A stretch of DNA of 6,943 nt from a virus. Its lineage: Duplodnaviria; Heunggongvirae; Uroviricota; Caudoviricetes. The notes under the pieces were generated by a model. The model saw nothing but the letters and a program-made list of their open reading frames with translations, did no database searches and had not been told where the DNA came from. Positions 1 through 6,943 of this stretch are shown here, piece after piece. Each line of letters opens with the position of its first letter. Position 1 is the first letter of the stretch. The stretch is taken from positions 1 to 6,943 of the IMG/VR virus record IMGVR_UViG_648276647_000010; one strand, written 5' to 3'. The position numbers were made by a program, and so were the translations under genes.

Positions 1-254
1 GGCTGATATAGCACCTGTTCTTAAGTTTATAGCGAATGGCCTTAATGGGCCGATATCACCGTTTTCGCCCTGTCCTTCAGCCGTCGGAATGAAATGAAGA
101 AAATCTTCTGAACGACGGAAAATAAGACCGAAGGCATTATTGAAAATTCGCAGCGCATTTATCGCGTCAATTTTCAGTTCTCCGGTCATTTTATCGCCTG
201 AACGCTGAACGGCGTTACCAGCCCTGTTTACCGTTTCCTGTAAACCGAGGTTTT
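1..254 (-). CDS. Phage tail-fibre variable domain (Mu S/S'-type exon inside the invertible G segment), partial; no own start codon, runs off the window edge
   Basis: Hand translation of the minus strand from 254 downward gives an uninterrupted frame to position 1 (NLGLQETVNRAGNAVQRSGDKMTGELKIDAINALRIFNNAFGLIFRRSEDFLHFIPTAEGQGENGDIGPLRPF...). It contains the SGDxMTGxL-type motif typical of phage tail-fibre proteins. The frame begins inside the gix site, as expected for a variable exon that is only expressed after inversion fuses it to a constant 5' part. Not in the supplied ORF track because it lacks a start codon. Confidence 0.55.
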
Positions 255-260
255 AGATAA
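235..260. other. gix-type 26-bp recombination (crossover) site for the Gin invertase; right boundary of the invertible G segment
   Basis: The sequence ttcctgtaaacc-ga-ggttttagataa (235-260) is an imperfect palindrome of two 12-bp half-sites around a 2-bp core. It matches the Gin/Hin/Cin/Pin crossover-site family and sits immediately upstream of the invertase gene, as in phage Mu. Confidence 0.7.
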
Positions 261-314
261 TGGCTGTTTCCGGCCTGCATGGCATGATTTGCGCTTTTAA
301 ACGGGAGATCCAGA

Positions 315-908
315 GTGCTGATTGGCTATGTAAGGGTATCAACAAATGACCAGAATACAGACCTGCAACGAAACGCTCTTGTTTGTGCAGGATGTGAACA
401 AATATTTGAAGATAAATTAAGCGGAACAAGGACAGACAGACCTGGATTAAAACGCGCTTTAAAGCGCCTTCAAAAAGGTGACACACTGGTTGTCTGGAAA
501 CTGGATCGCCTCGGGCGAAGCATGAAACATTTGATTTCTCTCGTAGGGGAATTACGAGAGCGAGGGATTAATTTTCGCAGTCTTACTGACAGTATTGATA
601 CGTCATCTCCAATGGGGCGTTTTTTCTTCCACGTTATGGGTGCCCTGGCTGAGATGGAACGAGAACTAATCATCGAGCGAACGATGGCAGGACTTGCTGC
701 CGCCAGAAATAAAGGCCGTATTGGTGGGCGACCACCTAAACTAACCAAAGCGGAATGGGAGCAGGCCGGGCGTTTATTAGCACAAGGAATCCCCCGCAAG
801 CAGGTTGCATTGATCTACGATGTGGCCCTGTCAACTCTGTATAAAAAACACCCCGCGAAACGAACGCATATAGAAAACGACGATCGAATCAATCAAATCG
901 ATCGGTAA
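315..908 (+). CDS. gin: Serine-recombinase DNA invertase Gin (G-segment invertase, Hin/Gin/Cin/Pin family)
   Basis: 197-aa ORF starting at GTG 315, with GGAGA Shine-Dalgarno at 304-308. N-terminus MLIGYVRVSTNDQ carries the catalytic Ser9 of the resolvase/invertase domain, and the C-terminus has a helix-turn-helix (GRPPKLTKAEWEQAGRLL...). The sequence matches phage Mu Gin as I recall it. In Mu the Fis-dependent recombinational enhancer lies inside the 5' part of this gene; I could not place it precisely by eye. Confidence 0.9.
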   Translation: MLIGYVRVSTNDQNTDLQRNALVCAGCEQIFEDKLSGTRTDRPGLKRALKRLQKGDTLVVWKLDRLGRSMKHLISLVGELRERGINFRSLTDSIDTSSPMGRFFFHVMGALAEMERELIIERTMAGLAAARNKGRIGGRPPKLTKAEWEQAGRLLAQGIPRKQVALIYDVALSTLYKKHPAKRTHIENDDRINQIDR

Positions 909-916
909 TACAGATC
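882..916. promoter_or_regulatory. Triad of Dam GATC sites upstream of the mom promoter (OxyR/MomR binding region when unmethylated)
   Basis: Three GATC sites at 882-885, 900-903 and 913-916, clustered in the 3' end of gin just upstream of the com-mom promoter. This matches the known Mu arrangement in which unmethylated GATCs permit OxyR repression of mom. Confidence 0.6.
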
Positions 917-965
917 GATTATGCCCCAATAACCACACTCAACCCATGATGTTTTTTAAGATAGT
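917..965 (+). promoter_or_regulatory. mom operon promoter region (Pmom) with putative C-activator binding palindrome and T6 spacer run
   Basis: Interrupted palindrome TTAT-gcccca-ATAA at 919-932 is a candidate C-protein site. A run of six T at 952-957 lies just upstream of the -10-like TAAGAT at 957-962, and the AGGAGG Shine-Dalgarno at 981-986 precedes the com ATG at 991. This matches the described weak, activator-dependent Pmom; exact -35/-10 assignment is uncertain. Confidence 0.5.
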
Positions 966-990
966 GGCGAATTGATGCAAAGGAGGTGAG

Positions 991-1179
991 ATGAAATCAA
1001 TTCGCTGTAAAAACTGCAACAAACTGTTATTTAAGGCGGATTCCTTTGATCACATTGAAATCAGGTGTCCGCGTTGTAAACGTCACATCATAATGCTGAA
1101 TGCCTGCGAGCATCCCACGGAGAAACATTGTGGGAAAAGAGAAGAAATCACGCATTCTGACGAAACCGTGCGTTATTGA
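991..1179 (+). CDS. com: Com, zinc-finger translational activator of mom
   Basis: 62-aa [37 protein letters not shown]... with Cys6/Cys9/Cys26/Cys29 forming the CxxC...CxxC zinc site described for Mu Com. Strong Shine-Dalgarno upstream, and the 3' end overlaps the mom start region as in Mu. Confidence 0.9.
1113..1135 (+). promoter_or_regulatory. mom translation-initiation stem-loop (Com-regulated); sequesters the Shine-Dalgarno and GUG start
   Basis: Perfect 6-bp inverted repeat tcccac (1113-1118) / guggga (1130-1135) around an 11-nt loop ggagaaacauu. The loop contains GGAG (1119-1122) and the stem contains GUG 1130-1132, in frame with the mom ORF. This matches the known mechanism in which Com binds just 5' of a hairpin to unmask mom initiation. 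Confidence 0.55.
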
Positions 1180-1846
1180 GTATGAAGGCCAGATTGTTGG
1201 CTATGGTTCAAAGGAGCTGCGCGTTGAAACCATATCCTGCTGGCTGGCCCGCACAATTATTCAGACAAAGCACTATTCCCGCCGTTTTGTGAATAACTCT
1301 TACCTCCACCTGGGAGTATTCAGCGGACGCGATCTGGTTGGCGTTCTCCAGTGGGGATATGCCCTTAACCCCAACTCAGGTCGTCGTGTCGTGCTTGAAA
1401 CGGATAACCGGGGCTATATGGAGTTGAATCGCATGTGGCTACACGACGACATGCCCCGCAACTCTGAATCACGGGCCATCAGCTACGCGCTGAAAGTTAT
1501 CAGATTACTGTATCCGTCAGTGGAGTGGGTTCAGTCCTTTGCTGACGAACGCTGCGGACGCGCAGGCGTTGTGTATCAGGCGTCGAATTTTGATTTTATT
1601 GGCAGCCATGAAAGCACGTTCTACGAGCTGGATGGTGAGTGGTATCACGAGATAACGATGAACGCGATTAAGCGAGGTGGACAACGAGGCGTGTATTTAC
1701 GGGCTAATAAAGAGCGTGCCGTGGTGCACAAATTTAATCAGTATCGCTACATCAGATTCCTGAACAAGCGAGCAAGGAAGCGGCTAAATACTAAGCTATT
1801 CAGGATCCAACCATATCCAAAATCAATTCTGACTGGTATCAAATAA
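1130..1846 (+). CDS. mom: Mom DNA-modification enzyme (adenine N6 acetamido/carbamoylmethyl modification; acyltransferase-like fold), anti-restriction
   Basis: The ORF immediately follows and overlaps com and has the Mu Mom-like sequence (…[40 protein letters not shown]…). I place the start at GUG 1130, which has a GGAG 7 nt upstream and sits in the regulatory hairpin. The ORF track extends it to ATG 1100, which lacks a Shine-Dalgarno. The exact start and the C-terminus relative to canonical Mu Mom are not verified. Confidence 0.8.
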
Positions 1847-1902
1847 CCTATTTGTTCCTGCTGAAAAACAGCCCCTCATGGCATAAAATTGTTCCCGTGA
1901 GT

Positions 1903-1942
1903 TTAAAATGACCAAGTGGCAGTGCATTATTTGGTCATTTTA
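1903..1942. repeat. Inverted repeat TTAAAATGACCAA-N15-TTGGTCATTTTA (12 of 13 bp symmetric), flanked by direct repeats GTGAGTTTAAAA (1897-1908) and GTGAGTTTTAAA (1947-1958)
   Basis: Seen directly in the sequence. It lies between the mom stop and the next gene. It could be an operator for the downstream gene or a weak AT-rich terminator for the mom transcript; the function is unknown. Confidence 0.4.
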
Positions 1943-1981
1943 TGGGGTGAGTTTTAAAGTCAAAACGATGGTAAGGTGCAT

Positions 1982-2317
1982 ATGAAAAAAATACTCACAG
2001 CAGTACTACTTTGCTTTGGTGTTCTTTCTGCTAATCAGGCAATAGCAGTTGTTACCTTAAGCGGTAAGTATCCAGCATGCATATCTGCTAATGAATTCGA
2101 GCGATTAAGTTCAATTTTGCAACACGAAGATCAAGAAGCATTTGAAGAGATCTTTAAAACATCATGCTTTATGCCTAAAAAGGGGCTAAAAGTTGATAAA
2201 GTGGTTTCTATGGGGTGGACCAGTGGGGTTGCGCATGTCAAAGTTTATGTGAAAGGCAATCTTTACGATCTTTGGACTAACACCGAAAATCTTCAGTCCG
2301 AGAAGGCTGGTAAATAA
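1982..2317 (+). CDS. Hypothetical small secreted protein (Sec signal peptide, ~90-aa mature domain with 2 Cys); AT-rich orphan gene
   Basis: ORF with ATG at 1982 (the track starts it at in-frame GTG 1976) and AAGG at 1973-1976. N-terminus MKKILTAVLLCFGVLSANQAIA is a classic signal peptide with an AxA cleavage motif. GC is about 38% over the first 120 bp versus roughly 50% in the flanking core genes. I recognise no family. Confidence 0.6.
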   Translation: MKKILTAVLLCFGVLSANQAIAVVTLSGKYPACISANEFERLSSILQHEDQEAFEEIFKTSCFMPKKGLKVDKVVSMGWTSGVAHVKVYVKGNLYDLWTNTENLQSEKAGK

Positions 2318-2460
2318 AGCAGTAGTCAACCTGTAATCACATCATCTACCAGCTATCGCCTGATAAAGTTAGGTGATAGCTATTTCAATACTCTCTGGTT
2401 TTACTGGAAGCACGAAACTTAATACTCCCATTCCTGATTGCTTAATAATCAAGCATTTTT

Positions 2461-2526
2461 ATCTTGAATGTTTTTGCTATCACACGCGATAGCCTATCTT
2501 GAATGATTTTCAAAAATATCTTGAAT
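2461..2526. repeat. Three direct copies of ATCTTGAAT(G/A) at 2461, 2497 and 2517, with a GCTATC-N6-GATAGC palindrome at 2476-2493
   Basis: Seen directly in the sequence, in the convergent intergenic region between the orphan gene and the 3' end of opgB. A further inverted repeat AGCTATC-N17-GATAGCT lies at 2352-2382. Confidence 0.35.
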
Positions 2527-2575
2527 AATTTTGCGCGCTTTACGCACCTTATGCGACCTACACATCAGTCAGGAA

Positions 2576-4867
2576 TTACCCTTCACGTTCTACCACTTTA
2601 ATTTCCACCATGCCGATCCCGAGCTTACGCGGCGAGTGCCCGAGGATATTCCCTTCGTTGGTTGAGACAGGTTCCGGCGGCACAATTACCAGTGTGTCGG
2701 CATCGGTTGGGTTATCGAAATGCAGTGTGGTGGTGGTCACTTCATTGCCCAGCACAAGGGTTTGTTCTTCATTGCCTACGCGTACCGGAATAGGACGGCT
2801 GGCGTTATTGCCGTATGCTTTGGCGGTAATCACCAGGTCAAATTTCTTCGGCAGCGGATGCTTGTACTCGATTTTTACTTCATCGCCCAGCTGTGCGTTG
2901 GACCAGCGGCCCCACGACTCTGGACGAGAAATCCCGCTAAACTGTTTCACCTCTTCTGGCGCACCAGCGACGTTAAAGATGAAACTGTCGGCTTTGTAGC
3001 GAATATCGTTATCAACAATCTTTAGCGTATCGACATTGCCTTTGTAACGCGCCATGTCGATGACCGTATCTTTAAATGCCGTTTTGCCCTTCCATATTGC
3101 TTTGTCAACATGCTGAACAATTTGCTGACCGCCAAGCTGCCCTTGCGAGACACACCAGTCGGTGGAGAGTGCCAGTTCCGGAGCCCAGAGTTGTGCCATC
3201 TTGTAGCAACGGTCAACCCAGACGAAATTGTCGCGTGGAGCGAAATCTGCCAGCTGGAAACGCAGCGGTGCTGAGTATTCGCTTTCCGGCAGCGGTTCCA
3301 CGCGTTTGTCTGAAACCCGCAACAGCAGCGGCAAACGGAAATGGCTACCTGAGAAGGCAATCATGTTTTTCTGCTGGTCGATGGTGAACTCTTTCATCTC
3401 TTTAGGGAATTTCCACAGGCGGATGATATCCGGCTTCCACGCCAATGTTTTCTCTTTGATATTGAGGAAGATTTCCGACATTGACTGCCCGGATAAACTG
3501 CTACGGCCAAGTCCGAGATAGTTATCGCCACCGAGAATGTCCAGCACCGTCGCGCCGTTATCCATCGTATTACGCTTCACTGCCAGCGTCTCTTGCTGCG
3601 GCTTGTCGCCACGGATGACAAAAAACAGGTTATTGCGATCCTGCTTATTAAGGTATTTCCACGCCGTATTGTTCATCGCTAAATGGTCAGAAGAGACGAC
3701 GATGACGGTATCTTTAAACCACGGTGACGCTTTGATTTTGTTGATAAACGTCGCAATATTCTCCTGGCTGCAACTTACCGCGCTGAATGACTGATTCGGC
3801 TTACCGTCAAAATCATATTTTTTGCGGTTACAGGTGCGCGAGATAAAACCATCCGGGTGATGGGTATCGACTGTCAGGGTAAACAGTGAGAATCGCTGAC
3901 CTGAGCGGGAAAGCTCTTCAAATTTTTTCCACGCTTCATCGAGAACGGTATCGTCGTAGAATCCCCAGTCGTTGCGATAGTGCGGGTCGGCCACCACGCT
4001 TTTCAGCTCTTCTGAGCCGTATAAGTGGTCGAAGCCGTGCGATTTCAGGAACACATCTTTACCGGCAAAACGCAGATTCGCGCCCTGCACGAAATAGTTC
4101 TGATAACCCGAGTTTTTCAGAATATCGCCCAGACAGATGTTCTGCGGGAAGAAGCTGGAGACAGAGGCGGAGGCGTTGCCTTCAAATGGGGCAAACAGCG
4201 GTATGCCGCACTGAGAAGCTACCATGCCCGCAATCGTGTAATCCGTTCCCGGCAGTTGCTGCGTGTGGCTGAAATCCAGGCCTTCATTTTTCAACGCGCC
4301 CAGTTCAGGCGTGAGATCCGGGAAAGCCTCGTTATCAAAATAGGTCCGCTCGAGACTTTCGCCGTAGATATAAACCAGGTTGAGTTTCGGGTCAGGGATA
4401 GTTCTCGACGGCTCTTTATAATAAGCCGCAAAGTCCGGGTCGCCGTCGCGTGACTGGGATTTCACCAGTTCCGTTATCTGACGAAATGCCGGGCTGGCAT
4501 CCACTGAACCCAGCGCCAGTAAGAGTGCCAGCAGGCTGTAACCAAAATGGTGCGGATGATGGCGACGACGGCGCAGGATCCAGCCCAGCGCACCGAACAC
4601 CGCCGTCAGCCCCAGCACAATGCCGATACCCGGCAGGATGTATTTGCTGACGCCAGCACCGGTCAGGCTGTTGGTTAAGGTATAGAGAACCGCGTCGTTA
4701 ATACCATCGCCAGTAAAATAGTCGCTGGCAAACAGGGTGATATTTAAAACGACAAATAGCCCCAGCACCGTTAACGTGGCTGCAAACCACCAGGTGTTAC
4801 GTCCCGCTTTCCATGCGTAAATCAGCACAGAGGCGAGAAAAAGGGCGAAAGAGAGTAGTTCTGACAA
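2576..4867 (-). CDS. opgB: Phosphoglycerol transferase I (osmoregulated periplasmic glucan biosynthesis; sulfatase/LTA-synthase-like membrane enzyme)
   Basis: 763-aa ORF with N-terminal transmembrane helices ([20 protein letters not shown]..., [15 protein letters not shown]..., [19 protein letters not shown]) followed by a large periplasmic sulfatase-type domain. Length and sequence match E. coli MdoB/OpgB as I recall it, and the position downstream of yjjA-dnaC-dnaT matches the E. coli gene order. Confidence 0.9.
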
Positions 4868-5120
4868 CGGGCGATCCTCACTAAACCGGGCCGTTTAGCC
4901 AACGTTTAAGCTTTTTGAGAAGCACAATGTAATGGCGTCGCCATATTGCTGCAATTCTAGTGTCAAAAAAATGCGACGTTGTTAGGAATTAGTTTATAAA
5001 CAGACTTTTTTGATCGCGGTCGCTTCCCGTGTAACAGGGGTAAAACCGTCCAGGAGCAGGGAAAAGGGCAGGAGAGAGCCGCGTCAGCCGGGTAACAGCT
5101 AAAACGCGGCGTTTCGCGGT

Positions 5121-5618
5121 TCAGGAAATGAAGTTCAGCCCCTGCTTTAATACTAGATCGCAGGCTTTGGTTTTCACCTTTTCTGCCAGCGGAGTCGTTC
5201 CAATATTATCCAGATTGAGTTGCTGACCATCTTTGGTTTTCAGCAAACCCTGAATGCCATCCAGATAGTTGGTGTCTTCTTTTTGCTCTTCACTGTTCAG
5301 GCCCAGTTTTTCCAGTACCTGATTCTTGATGTTTTCGGCATCGGTTACCGAAGCCAGCTTTTGCTTCGCACAGTATTGCAGAATGCCTGCGGCGTTGTTC
5401 ATGTTATCTGCGCTTAAGGCCTGGTTCCCGCTGCTAAGCAAGTTAGTTAATGACGCGAGCGACCAACCGCCTTCCTGTGTCGTGTTGTTTTGGTTGCCAA
5501 GTTCGCTGGCGGCGCTGGAGAGCGCATCTTTCCAGGACGCAGCATGCACCCCGGTGGAAATTAATGCGCTGGCGGCAATGGCACAGCACAGAAGATGTTT
5601 AATAGTTTTCATCATCAT
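5121..5618 (-). CDS. yjjA: Conserved secreted protein YjjA (DUF2501 family)
   Basis: 165-aa ORF with signal peptide (MMMKTIKHLLCCAIAASALISTGVHA). It lies between dnaC and opgB as in E. coli. The true start may be the 2nd or 3rd of the three tandem ATG codons. Confidence 0.75.
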   Translation of the reverse strand: MMMKTIKHLLCCAIAASALISTGVHAASWKDALSSAASELGNQNNTTQEGGWSLASLTNLLSSGNQALSADNMNNAAGILQYCAKQKLASVTDAENIKNQVLEKLGLNSEEQKEDTNYLDGIQGLLKTKDGQQLNLDNIGTTPLAEKVKTKACDLVLKQGLNFIS

Positions 5619-5663
5619 TACTCAAGGTTGAATTGTGTCGCAGTATACCGCCAGAAACGGGGA

Positions 5664-6401
5664 TTAATACTCTTTACCTGTTACACGGCTACGGTAGCTA
5701 TCCCAGTTGAAGATCACCCACAAACTGTTACCCAGGCGCATACGGTCCATCACGCGTTCGCCCAGCAACTTGGTCATCTCTTCCATATTACTGTTGGTCA
5801 GCATCCCGGTTGGGCGTTTGGAAGAAGAGCGGCGATCGACGATCTGGTTGATGATCACTTTTTCGTATTTCGATTCGGTCTGCACGCCGATCTCATCGAT
5901 CACCAGCAGATCAACGTTACTCAGATCGTTAAGCAGTTGTTCTTCGCTGGTACCGCTATTCCTGAAGGTATCTTTCATCGCCGACATAATATCGGCCACG
6001 GTGATGATCAATACGGATTTACCGCGTAGCAGCAGCTCGTTGCAGATTGCCGCCGCCAGATGGTTTTTGCCGGTTCCTGGCTTGCCAGAAAAGATGAAGC
6101 TGGCGATGTTGCCGTCAAACTCTTCGACATACTGGCGCGCTTTGCTTAACGCATTCATCTGCCCTTCACACTCAACGCGATAGTTCTCAAAGGAGCAGTT
6201 CTGATGCAGTGGACGAATACCGGAGCGGTTAAAGGTGCGCTGCATTTTCATCGCCCGATTTTCACGTTCGAGAGCGGCGGAGCGGATCGCCCCTTGTTCT
6301 TTCTGCCAGGCCAGTAATTCTTCACCCGTTTTGAACGCAGGTTTGATATGGGCAGGCATCATTTTTTGCAGGCGTTGCATCAGGTCGCCAACGTTTTTCA
6401 T
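5664..6401 (-). CDS. dnaC: Replicative helicase loader DnaC (AAA+ ATPase)
   Basis: 245-aa ORF with Walker A motif GKPGTGKNHLAAAI and Walker B-like LLVIDEIG. The sequence matches E. coli DnaC, and the start lies 2 bp from the dnaT stop, indicating an operon. Confidence 0.95.
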   Translation of the reverse strand: MKNVGDLMQRLQKMMPAHIKPAFKTGEELLAWQKEQGAIRSAALERENRAMKMQRTFNRSGIRPLHQNCSFENYRVECEGQMNALSKARQYVEEFDGNIASFIFSGKPGTGKNHLAAAICNELLLRGKSVLIITVADIMSAMKDTFRNSGTSEEQLLNDLSNVDLLVIDEIGVQTESKYEKVIINQIVDRRSSSKRPTGMLTNSNMEEMTKLLGERVMDRMRLGNSLWVIFNWDSYRSRVTGKEY

Positions 6402-6403
6402 CG

Positions 6404-6943
6404 TTACCCTCTGAATCCTGGTGGAATTTGGCTGTCAGGTTCACTGACCGTATTCACATCTCGTTTCGGCAGTCCGCCGTTGCTGGCACGACCGATTTGC
6501 AGGCTGCGCGCCAGTTTTTGTTGCCACTGCACATGGTGAAAGACTTTGCCTTCCGCCTGCCAGTAGGCAATGAATGACGCCAGTTCTTCGGCGGTCACCG
6601 GCTCTCTTAGTGCCACGCCCCATAGCGCCGCCAGGCGGATAAAGTCGGCATCGGGTTGCCAGTCCGGATACATGGCAAATTTCCCCATGGGTACGGCAAC
6701 GGGAGCGGTTTGCGGTTCCTGATAGAGTTGATCGTCCAGGGCCACGTCACTTCCCGGACGCGCCAGCTTTTCTTCCAGCGCCAGCAGTTCAGCCAGGCGT
6801 GCAGGCGTGATGGCATAAAACGCCGGGGCATTGTTAGCAAATACGGCAACCACACCGCCTTCAGCTTTTGCCAGAACGGTTTGGTGATCGTGTACCAGGG
6901 CGTCAATACCAACGACGTCCGGGGTCAAAACTCTGGAAGACAT
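6404..6943 (-). CDS. dnaT: Primosomal protein 1 (DnaT)
   Basis: 179-aa ORF ([30 protein letters not shown]...) immediately upstream of and co-directional with dnaC. Its ATG is the reverse complement of the last three bases of the window, so the CDS is complete but its promoter is outside the window. Confidence 0.9.

Follow-up and report, generated by a model that had tools for sequence, protein, structure and literature searches.

The DNA considered here is a stretch of 6,943 nucleotides (hereafter the window), positions 1 to 6,943 of the IMG/VR virus record IMGVR_UViG_648276647_000010, and the question is how the prophage that it contains ends. The left 2.5 kb of the window are the right part of a Mu-type prophage, and the remaining right 4.4 kb are Escherichia coli core chromosome, which carries opgB, yjjA, dnaC and dnaT. 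The prophage part is very probably the right-hand portion of a mosaic transposable phage, in which a Mu-type body is joined to the right end of a second class of transposase and end specificity. This end, at 2460–2542, is predicted from its sequence to be a genuine transposition end of non-Mu type. The first-pass annotation had proposed, as one of two options for the interval 1847–1981 behind the mom gene, a Mu relative with a different end. That idea was correct, except that the end does not lie in this interval but 560 bp further on. The end and the adjoining host DNA consist of the following features:

2460–2481, plus strand: innermost putative transposase-binding repeat, with its core TATCTTGAA 75 nt from the terminus
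2495–2516, plus strand: middle repeat, with its core 40 nt from the terminus
2517–2542, plus strand: terminal repeat, with its core 18 nt from the terminus, and the terminus ...TTTTGCGCGCTTTA-3'
2543–2546, no strand: CGCA, with which the host DNA begins according to the K-12 empty site and which is predicted to be the right-hand copy of a 4-bp target duplication, the left copy of which would lie beyond the window
2543–2575, no strand: leftover half of the lgoD/opgB intergenic terminator hairpin, which was split by the insertion

The last 83 bp of foreign DNA (2460–2542) thus hold three TATCTTGAA-core repeats in the same orientation and finish with the terminus ...GCGCGCTTTA-3' at 2542. The exact 10-mer TATCTTGAAT starts at 2460, 2495 and 2517, with all three copies contained within 2460–2526. 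This is the arrangement of the TTCAAGATA end class (RM9088 type), whose right ends read ...TTTT(G/C)CGCGCTTTA and have their cores 18, 40 and 75 nt from the terminus; the same distances were found in 11/11 right ends examined. After the identical final A, the terminus abuts at least 18 different, unrelated flanks. It was found as ...TTTTGCGCGCTTTA with different flanking DNA in phages that carry the same small gene as the window between mom and the terminus (the cargo gene, 1982–2317), namely the window's phage itself (L022), L015–L021, L008/L009 and L023. It was also found with different flanking DNA in L006, L007, L060 and L063 (the latter two with the TTTTCCGCGCTTTA variant) and in RM9088, STEC388, VL40 and STEC346, and further in Shigella flexneri and another E. 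coli genome. The relatives that share the terminus and lack the cargo gene comprise IMG/VR contigs and the four finished genomes RM9088, STEC388, VL40 and STEC346. Phages with the exact same cargo protein occupy about 10 different sites with near-identical sequences (L022 being the window's own site), which indicates recent movement. These sites include a Plug-domain receptor gene, fliK, a position near gyrA, eutC and the tra region of a conjugative plasmid. Two of the cargo-bearing phages, L023 and L024, have a variant last repeat (TATCGTGAATGATTTTGCGCGCTTTA). L024 (CAMGOA010000046.1, 37,242 bp) has a tail-fibre module of non-gin type, and its contig ends one base past the phage terminus, as would be expected of a phage that has many different flanks in the culture.

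The left end of this class is TATGAC...TTCAAGATAA, in its fuller form TATGAC(T/C)A(G/A)GTAA(A/T)TT..., with TATGAC..GTAA.TTATTCAAGATAA. In 12/12 left ends the TTCAAGATA cores stand in the orientation opposite to that of the right end, 18, 89 and 140–141 nt from the terminus. The ends are asymmetric and multi-site, with 18/40/75 on the right in the window and 18/89/140 on the left in class members. Exact 4-bp target duplications (TTCA, ATTC, TAAG, GATA, AGGA and CTTT) were present in all six elements for which both ends were available: RM9088 (L011/L013), VL40 (L092), STEC346 (L093) and the IMG/VR elements L044/L006, L048/L060 and L045/L063. The matching left ends lie 34.6–43 kb from the right ends, so that the duplications span the whole phage, and the termini are TA...TA, compared with TG...CA in Mu. 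A 5-bp duplication with a miscalled terminal base was considered and rejected, since every junction has the same T in front of ATGAC and the same A behind TTT, and since a 5-bp reading does not fit all six duplication pairs. Like Mu-like phages in general, members of the class enter many unrelated sites with exact ends and a short duplication, as the right flanks (at least 18) and the duplications (6/6) document.

The transposase of the class is a protein of ~695 aa with the Pfam domains Mu-transpos_C and HTH_Tnp_Mu_1. It is encoded after homologues of c and ner and is followed by a MuB-like ATPase, an arrangement that was seen in RM9088, VL40, STEC346 and L039–L048. It is 24% identical to MuA. 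More than 1300 relatives were found in E. coli, Shigella and Salmonella, and the nearest transposases of named phages are those of vB_YpM_5/vB_YpM_6 (80%), a Klebsiella phage (55%), and SuMu and Mannheimia phages (44–46%). In the literature library that was searched, no paper contained these end sequences, and the TTCAAGATA end and transposase class looks undescribed. Fixed remnants of phages of this class, truncated by insertion sequences (IS), occur in S. flexneri (L031–L034, L037) and S. boydii (L094–L096); they retain only the left end, c, ner and the transposase gene, sometimes also B, at the same chromosomal site in many genomes. Two records of Stx-converting phages (LC727881.1 and LC727895.1) are annotated with an inserted Mu-like phage, the transposase of which is 73% identical to the RM9088 type; members of the family therefore insert into other prophages.

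The position of the right boundary was fixed by comparison with E. coli lacking the insertion, as the first-pass annotation had advised. Among 5426 complete E. coli genomes, 5392 have a match that covers only the part from 2543 onward. The empty site in K-12 reads ...GTGTAGGT joined to CGCACCCTATGCGACCTACAC, beginning with CGCACCC after the junction, and the corresponding junction in the window is ...GCGCGCTTTA joined to CGCACCTTATGCGACCTACAC. Because the E. coli matches start at 2543 and the K-12 empty site agrees, the foreign DNA extends up to 2542 and includes the open reading frame 1982–2317. This gene, which the earlier annotation had taken as the limit of the prophage, is hence phage cargo and not a host gene. 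Used as a query, 1847–2542 found no match among phages or plasmids, and among the 5426 complete E. coli genomes it matched only the prophage here called H1. The terminator hairpin that lgoD and opgB share (GTGTAGGTCGCA...TGCGACCTACAC; window 2543–2575 compared with L004 1490–1530) has its stem cut by the insertion, so that transcription of opgB may continue into the end of the phage.

The terminus of the prophage was also compared with that of Mu. Transposition of Mu generates 5-bp target duplications at CA termini; its attR consists of the sites R1, R2 and R3 and the terminal ...TTCA, and its canonical attL is TGTATTGATTCACTTGAAGTACGAAAA. The terminal 83 bp of the prophage showed no significant similarity to attR of Mu or D108, and the terminal ...CGCCGCTTCA-3' of these two phages, with its CA dinucleotide, is absent, the prophage ending in ...GCGCGCTTTA-3' instead. 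The MuA-type half-site RAARYRCGAAAR, with up to one mismatch, was not found in 1847–1981. In the prophage part it occurs only at 2407–2418 and at the terminus (2530–2541), and the latter match is at chance level. A three-site right end of MuA type is thus not present in the window, which has one R3-like vestige and the chance-level match at the prophage terminus. The possibility that the terminal repeats are diverged MuA sites was rejected, as no significant alignment was obtained; TATCTTGAA resembles TATCGTGAA in Mu R2, but in a different register. The initial observation that no recognisable Mu right end follows mom was accordingly borne out for 1847–1981, where a genuine R-end that might have been overlooked by eye was sought and not found.

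Upstream of the terminus, the prophage part contains the following features:

1–250, minus strand: 3' part of the tail-fibre S' segment and edge of the invertible G segment, 97% identical at the DNA level to Mu, D108 and SfMu, where it is annotated as tail fibre or S'
315–908, plus strand: gin, the G-segment invertase (Pfam Resolvase and HTH_7), with DNA 97% identical to gin of Mu and D108
991–1179, plus strand: com (Pfam Zn_ribbon_Com; annotated as Com in matching records)
1100–1846, plus strand: mom, with a D108-type C-terminus (Pfam Mom, E = 2.8e-75)
1836–1847, plus strand: GGTATCAAATAA, which overlaps the stop codon of mom and is a remnant of the innermost site in right ends of a third class (GTATCAAA); the sole GTATCAAA in the window
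1861–1889, plus strand: promoter-like site, CTGAAA and TAAAAT separated by 17 nt, a weak match in a consensus scan, upstream of the palindrome and the cargo gene
1897–1958, plus strand: palindrome with arms 1904–1915 and 1931–1942 and a 15-nt loop, and direct repeats at 1897–1908 and 1947–1958
1982–2317, plus strand: accessory gene (moron) for a 111-aa protein with a signal-peptide-like N-terminus, always located after mom
2351–2381, plus strand: hairpin (−19.8 kcal/mol, z = −5.0) downstream of the cargo gene, for which it probably serves as terminator, with ATTTCAAT behind it
2386–2418, plus strand: vestigial Mu-type R3 site with upstream context, including a one-mismatch MuA half-site at 2407–2418 in R3 orientation

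The DNA of gin, com and mom is ~97% identical to that of Mu, D108, SfMu and several Yersinia Mu-like phages. Homology with Mu breaks off at 1821, 25 nt short of the mom stop codon, and homology of the D108 type extends to the stop at 1846; for this reason the C-terminus of Mom is unlike that of canonical Mu. It had been suspected from the start that these residues might differ, and they do. A breakpoint within the last codons of mom exists relative to Mu, as had also been proposed, but not as a deletion: it reflects a D108-type C-terminus that is common to D108 and vB_YpM_5.

The interval 1847–1981, to which attention had first been drawn, is a 135-bp spacer that separates mom from the cargo gene. 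The inverted repeat reported there is real, with two perfect 12-bp arms (TAAAATGACCAA and TTGGTCATTTTA) around a 15-nt loop, although its start had been placed one base too early (1903 instead of 1904). The flanking direct repeats, GTGAGTTTAAAA (1897–1908) and GTGAGTTTTAAA (1947–1958), are likewise present and are identical at 11/12 positions. A perfect inverted repeat of at least 12 bp arose in 0/3000 mononucleotide shuffles and in 0/3000 first-order Markov resamples of 1847–1981. As plus-strand RNA, the palindrome folds with −21.1 kcal/mol (z = −3.3) into a hairpin located 57 nt past the mom stop. Between the two lineages, the window type and H1, there are nine substitutions in 1847–1981, three of them in the loop and none in the 24 arm bases; this conservation of the arms is suggestive, short of statistical significance. 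Both promoter-like hexamers are conserved in the H1 lineage. The palindrome was absent upstream of cargo homologues in other phages, and an Rfam search with it returned no family, only one chance match far below threshold.

The palindrome is no substitute for attR, and it is probably not a transposition site. Most likely it serves as a leader or operator of the cargo gene, or else forms a hairpin that terminates or stabilises the mom transcript. A more specific proposal, which is possible and which we hold to be rather doubtful, is that it terminates or stabilises the 3' end of the com-mom transcript and so insulates the cargo gene, and is not an operator or 5' leader. The stability of the plus-strand hairpin at its short distance from mom agrees with this proposal, as do the A-rich tract ahead of the stem, the T-rich tract within or after it, and the combination of conserved arms with a variable loop. 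On the other hand, the full stem is not followed directly by an uninterrupted T-run, the loop is large, and a terminator scan returned nothing. Moreover, the promoter-like site lies just upstream, and the hairpin would therefore sit at the 5' end of the cargo mRNA.

The mosaic nature of the phage is apparent from its upstream sequence. In window-type contigs, the 10 kb upstream of the cargo gene are ~98% identical to a canonical Mu-type prophage and, except for com-mom, are unrelated to the RM9088-type phage; the phage of the window is therefore a Mu-type body with a foreign right end. Similar mosaics were found with both ends on single contigs: in L048/L060 and L045/L063, the TTCAAGATA-class left end and transposase are combined with Mu-type genes, and on contig 2850808358_000012, TTCAAGATA-class ends and transposase are joined to early genes that are 98% Mu-type.

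A third end class was also recognised, with TTTGATAC/GTATCAAA cores and the left end TAT(A/G)(A/G)AGAGGTAAAT(T/C)ATTTGATACT. The transposase of these phages differs in its N-terminal third and has the last ~30 residues of MuA, and from B onward the phages are 98–99% Mu. Their right end (L049, vB_YpM_5) has three GTATCAAA sites at spacings of 35 and 22 nt and the final ...TTTTGCGCGCTTTA, and its innermost site, AGTATCAAATAA, overlaps the mom stop codon. The class was seen in L035, L049 and L091 (vB_YpM_5, MT374853.1, about 4560–4760). In the vB_YpM_5 record, the two ends are separated by ~80 nt that do not belong to the phage, as would be the case for host DNA packaged with it. In L035 (about 725–745), the host DNA to the left of the left end, ...cacggcgcgcttt followed directly by TATAGAG, resembles the right-terminal GCGCGCTTTA, which could be a coincidence or the trace of an adjacent end.

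When bases 2386–2417 of the window were aligned with Mu AATACATCTGTTTCATTTGAAGCGCGAAA (R3 with its upstream context), 24/31 columns matched, a result equalled in 3/500 shuffles. With this R3-like match and the GGTATCAAATAA site at the mom stop, two other types of end have left relics between mom and the terminus, beside the end that is in use.

The H1 lineage provides a counterpart to the window. H1 (L003/L005, NZ_CP027447.1) is a canonical Mu-type prophage with TG...CA ends and the 5-bp duplication TTCAG. In this lineage, a mom gene with the D108-type end is followed by the cargo gene, the R3-like vestige and a single TATCTTGAAT repeat ending in ...GCGCGCTTTA. Directly after ...GCGCGCTTTA comes the 3' part of a Mu-type mom (tcagccataccctaagtga...) and then the canonical Mu attR. 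The H1-type arrangement with Mu attR was present at 10/10 different flanks (L097–L106). The fusion of ...TTTA to the inside of a Mu mom gene, with the 3' end of mom duplicated, suggests that a right end of the window type inserted into a resident Mu prophage and that homologous recombination followed, since this is the trace that such events would be expected to leave. The H1 lineage can accordingly be read as one in which MuA ends took over and two of the three TATCTTGAAT repeats were lost. Taken together, we lean slightly towards a general scheme in which at least three interchangeable transposition modules (MuA, TTCAAGATA and TTTGATAC) operate on one Mu-type body of E. coli and Shigella, the latter two forming an undescribed branch with a TA terminus and a 4-bp duplication; the window would then record serial replacement of ends, and H1 the reverse swap.

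The cargo gene itself could start with GTG at 1976. The ATG at 1982 is preceded by AAGGTG, a good ribosome-binding site, and is the RefSeq-annotated start in H1. The identical protein is encoded on 24 contigs, in every case after mom, and a commoner variant (P0166, 612 contigs, the number also given for the window protein's own 90% cluster) belongs to phages with the H1-type arrangement. Members of the family, all of them named hypothetical, were seen in Enterobacteriaceae only, where they also occur in other phage types. The product is predicted to be a secreted protein. It has two conserved cysteines, and its AlphaFold2 model, which is confident, consists of two helices on a four- to five-strand sheet, with a predicted local distance difference test score (pLDDT) of ~90 over residues 30–100. 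No match to the protein was obtained in Pfam, PHROGs, NCBIfam, PADLOC or the Protein Data Bank (PDB); the fold is shared only with unnamed phage proteins of similar size, with no fold match in the PDB. Of the features that define a moron (a promoter and terminator of its own, a place between conserved phage modules, and variable presence), variable presence and a downstream hairpin were observed for this gene, and for the promoter there is the weak consensus match. The interval between mom and attR is a known cargo slot, because D108 also has a phage-specific gene there.

We propose that mom is followed by a cassette composed of a palindrome-bearing leader, the gene for the 111-aa predicted secreted protein and a terminator hairpin, and that this cassette is followed first by a defunct R3 site of Mu and next by the right end in use, at 2460–2542. 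The class transposase would bind the TTCAAGATA sites at both ends and pair the ends, cut after ...TTTA-3', and join the ends to the target with a 4-bp stagger, by either the replicative or the integrative pathway of Mu. The phage of the window is expected to have a cognate left end and transposase ~37 kb upstream, because phages with this terminus have moved recently, the geometry of the class is invariant, and mosaics with both ends exist.

A quite different explanation, offered as one option by the first-pass annotation, is a decayed prophage in which Mu attR was deleted or replaced by unrelated DNA, leaving an immobile remnant. The absence of MuA sites at the terminus, where only the vestigial R3-like site at 2386–2418 recalls Mu, would be in line with such decay; IS-truncated remnants of related phages do exist in Shigella, and the window alone cannot show that the rest of the prophage is intact. 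However, loss of an end by decay does not account for an identical junction base in at least 18 independent contexts, for terminal 83 bp that match the 18/40/75 geometry of complete, duplication-flanked elements, or for nearly identical cargo-bearing copies at about 10 sites. We therefore consider this explanation improbable, and for the right end it is already largely refuted. Still less credible, and in our judgment very remote, is that 1847–2542 constitutes a small mobile element or cassette in its own right, which inserted behind mom and brought its own end, so that the terminus would not be that of the phage. The same segment does occur inside a canonical Mu-type phage in the H1 lineage, and the cargo family is found in other phage types. 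Yet no inverted counterpart (TATGAC...TTCAAGATAA) is present at or near 1847, cargo-less phages have the same three repeats directly after mom, and the left ends that match are those tens of kilobases away, with duplications around entire phages. The H1 junction, for its part, is explained by insertion of the right end into Mu mom and subsequent recombination.

Several points weigh against the mosaic phage with its own class of ends as proposed above. The left end and transposase of a phage with the exact cargo gene and right end found in the window were not seen within the 10-kb flanks and among the matches listed, and for this reason the cognate pairing in the window's phage is deduced. A full-length transposase search yielded no cluster traceable to cargo-bearing contigs: clusters P0008, P0003 and P0001 are IS-truncated Shigella remnants, P0010, P0005 and P0004 are located in fully RM-type phages, and P0119 led to the third end class. 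A search with the N-terminal part of the transposase alone returned only truncated proteins, a metagenome scan for the class left end found nothing, and a looser right-end scan of viral contigs added nothing. Junction sequences are the basis on which binding of the repeats, cleavage at TTTA-3' and a 4-bp stagger are proposed. A terminal TA instead of the CA of Mu is unusual, and its assignment rests on the constant junction bases. The window's own copy may not be intact. As to the palindrome, the lack of a T-run directly after the hairpin, the weak promoter match and the statistically not strong arm conservation count against the functions suggested for it.

Mu serves as the model of replicative DNA transposition, and textbooks treat its end sites, its CA terminus and its 5-bp stagger as constants. 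Here the same phage body appears to be driven by a distant Mu-family transposase with other end sites, a TA terminus and a 4-bp duplication, a swap that has taken place in nature again and again. These phages could thus provide a comparative system for how Mu-family transposases set end recognition and target stagger and, if the classes prove orthogonal, natural parts for independent Mu-style transposition systems. For annotation, a search for Mu attR cannot define the boundaries of Mu-like prophages; a prophage in which attR seems to be missing need not be defective, and a small gene behind mom may belong to the phage as cargo and not to the host.

Compared with Mu, the right end of the window's phage resembles attR in its location after mom, in the presence of three sites within ~80–100 bp of the terminus, and in the contiguity of the outer two at a spacing of 22 bp. 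As in Mu, the left end that partners it is asymmetric, having one site at the terminus and two farther away, and insertion is random and duplicates a short piece of the target. In contrast to Mu, the core is TTCAAGATA instead of ...RCGAAAR (full MuA consensus ...AARYRCGAAAR), the right-end sites are all in one orientation, the terminal dinucleotide is TA and not CA, the duplication in class members is 4 bp and not 5 bp, and, as given above, only about a quarter of the transposase residues are identical to those of MuA. With D108, the window shares the D108-type C-terminus of Mom and an accessory gene between mom and the right end. However, gene 56, the cargo gene of D108, is unrelated to that of the window, and D108 keeps the MuA-type R1–R3 and the ...CGCCGCTTCA terminus.

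Outside E. coli and Yersinia, the nearest transposases of named phages are those of the SuMu phage of Haemophilus parasuis and of Mannheimia and Klebsiella Mu-like phages, which are 44–55% identical over >90% of their length; their hosts and genomes differ from those of the window's phage. In the paper on SuMu, neither the ends nor the length of the duplication are defined, and the SfMu paper defines no such ends either. The Yersinia phages vB_YpM_5 and vB_YpM_6 (MT374853, MT374854) have been treated as close relatives of Mu, D108 and SfMu, with no mention of their ends or transposase type (PMC10434027). Their gin-com-mom region is 97.5% identical to that of the window, their transposase, 79.8% identical to that of RM9088, is of the same non-MuA family, and their right end has the 35/22 spacing and the final TTTTGCGCGCTTTA as in the window. 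They differ in their GTATCAAA/TTTGATAC cores, which mark a sister specificity class, in the N-terminal third of the transposase and in the absence of a cargo gene. Both are isolated, viable and plaque-forming phages of the third end class.

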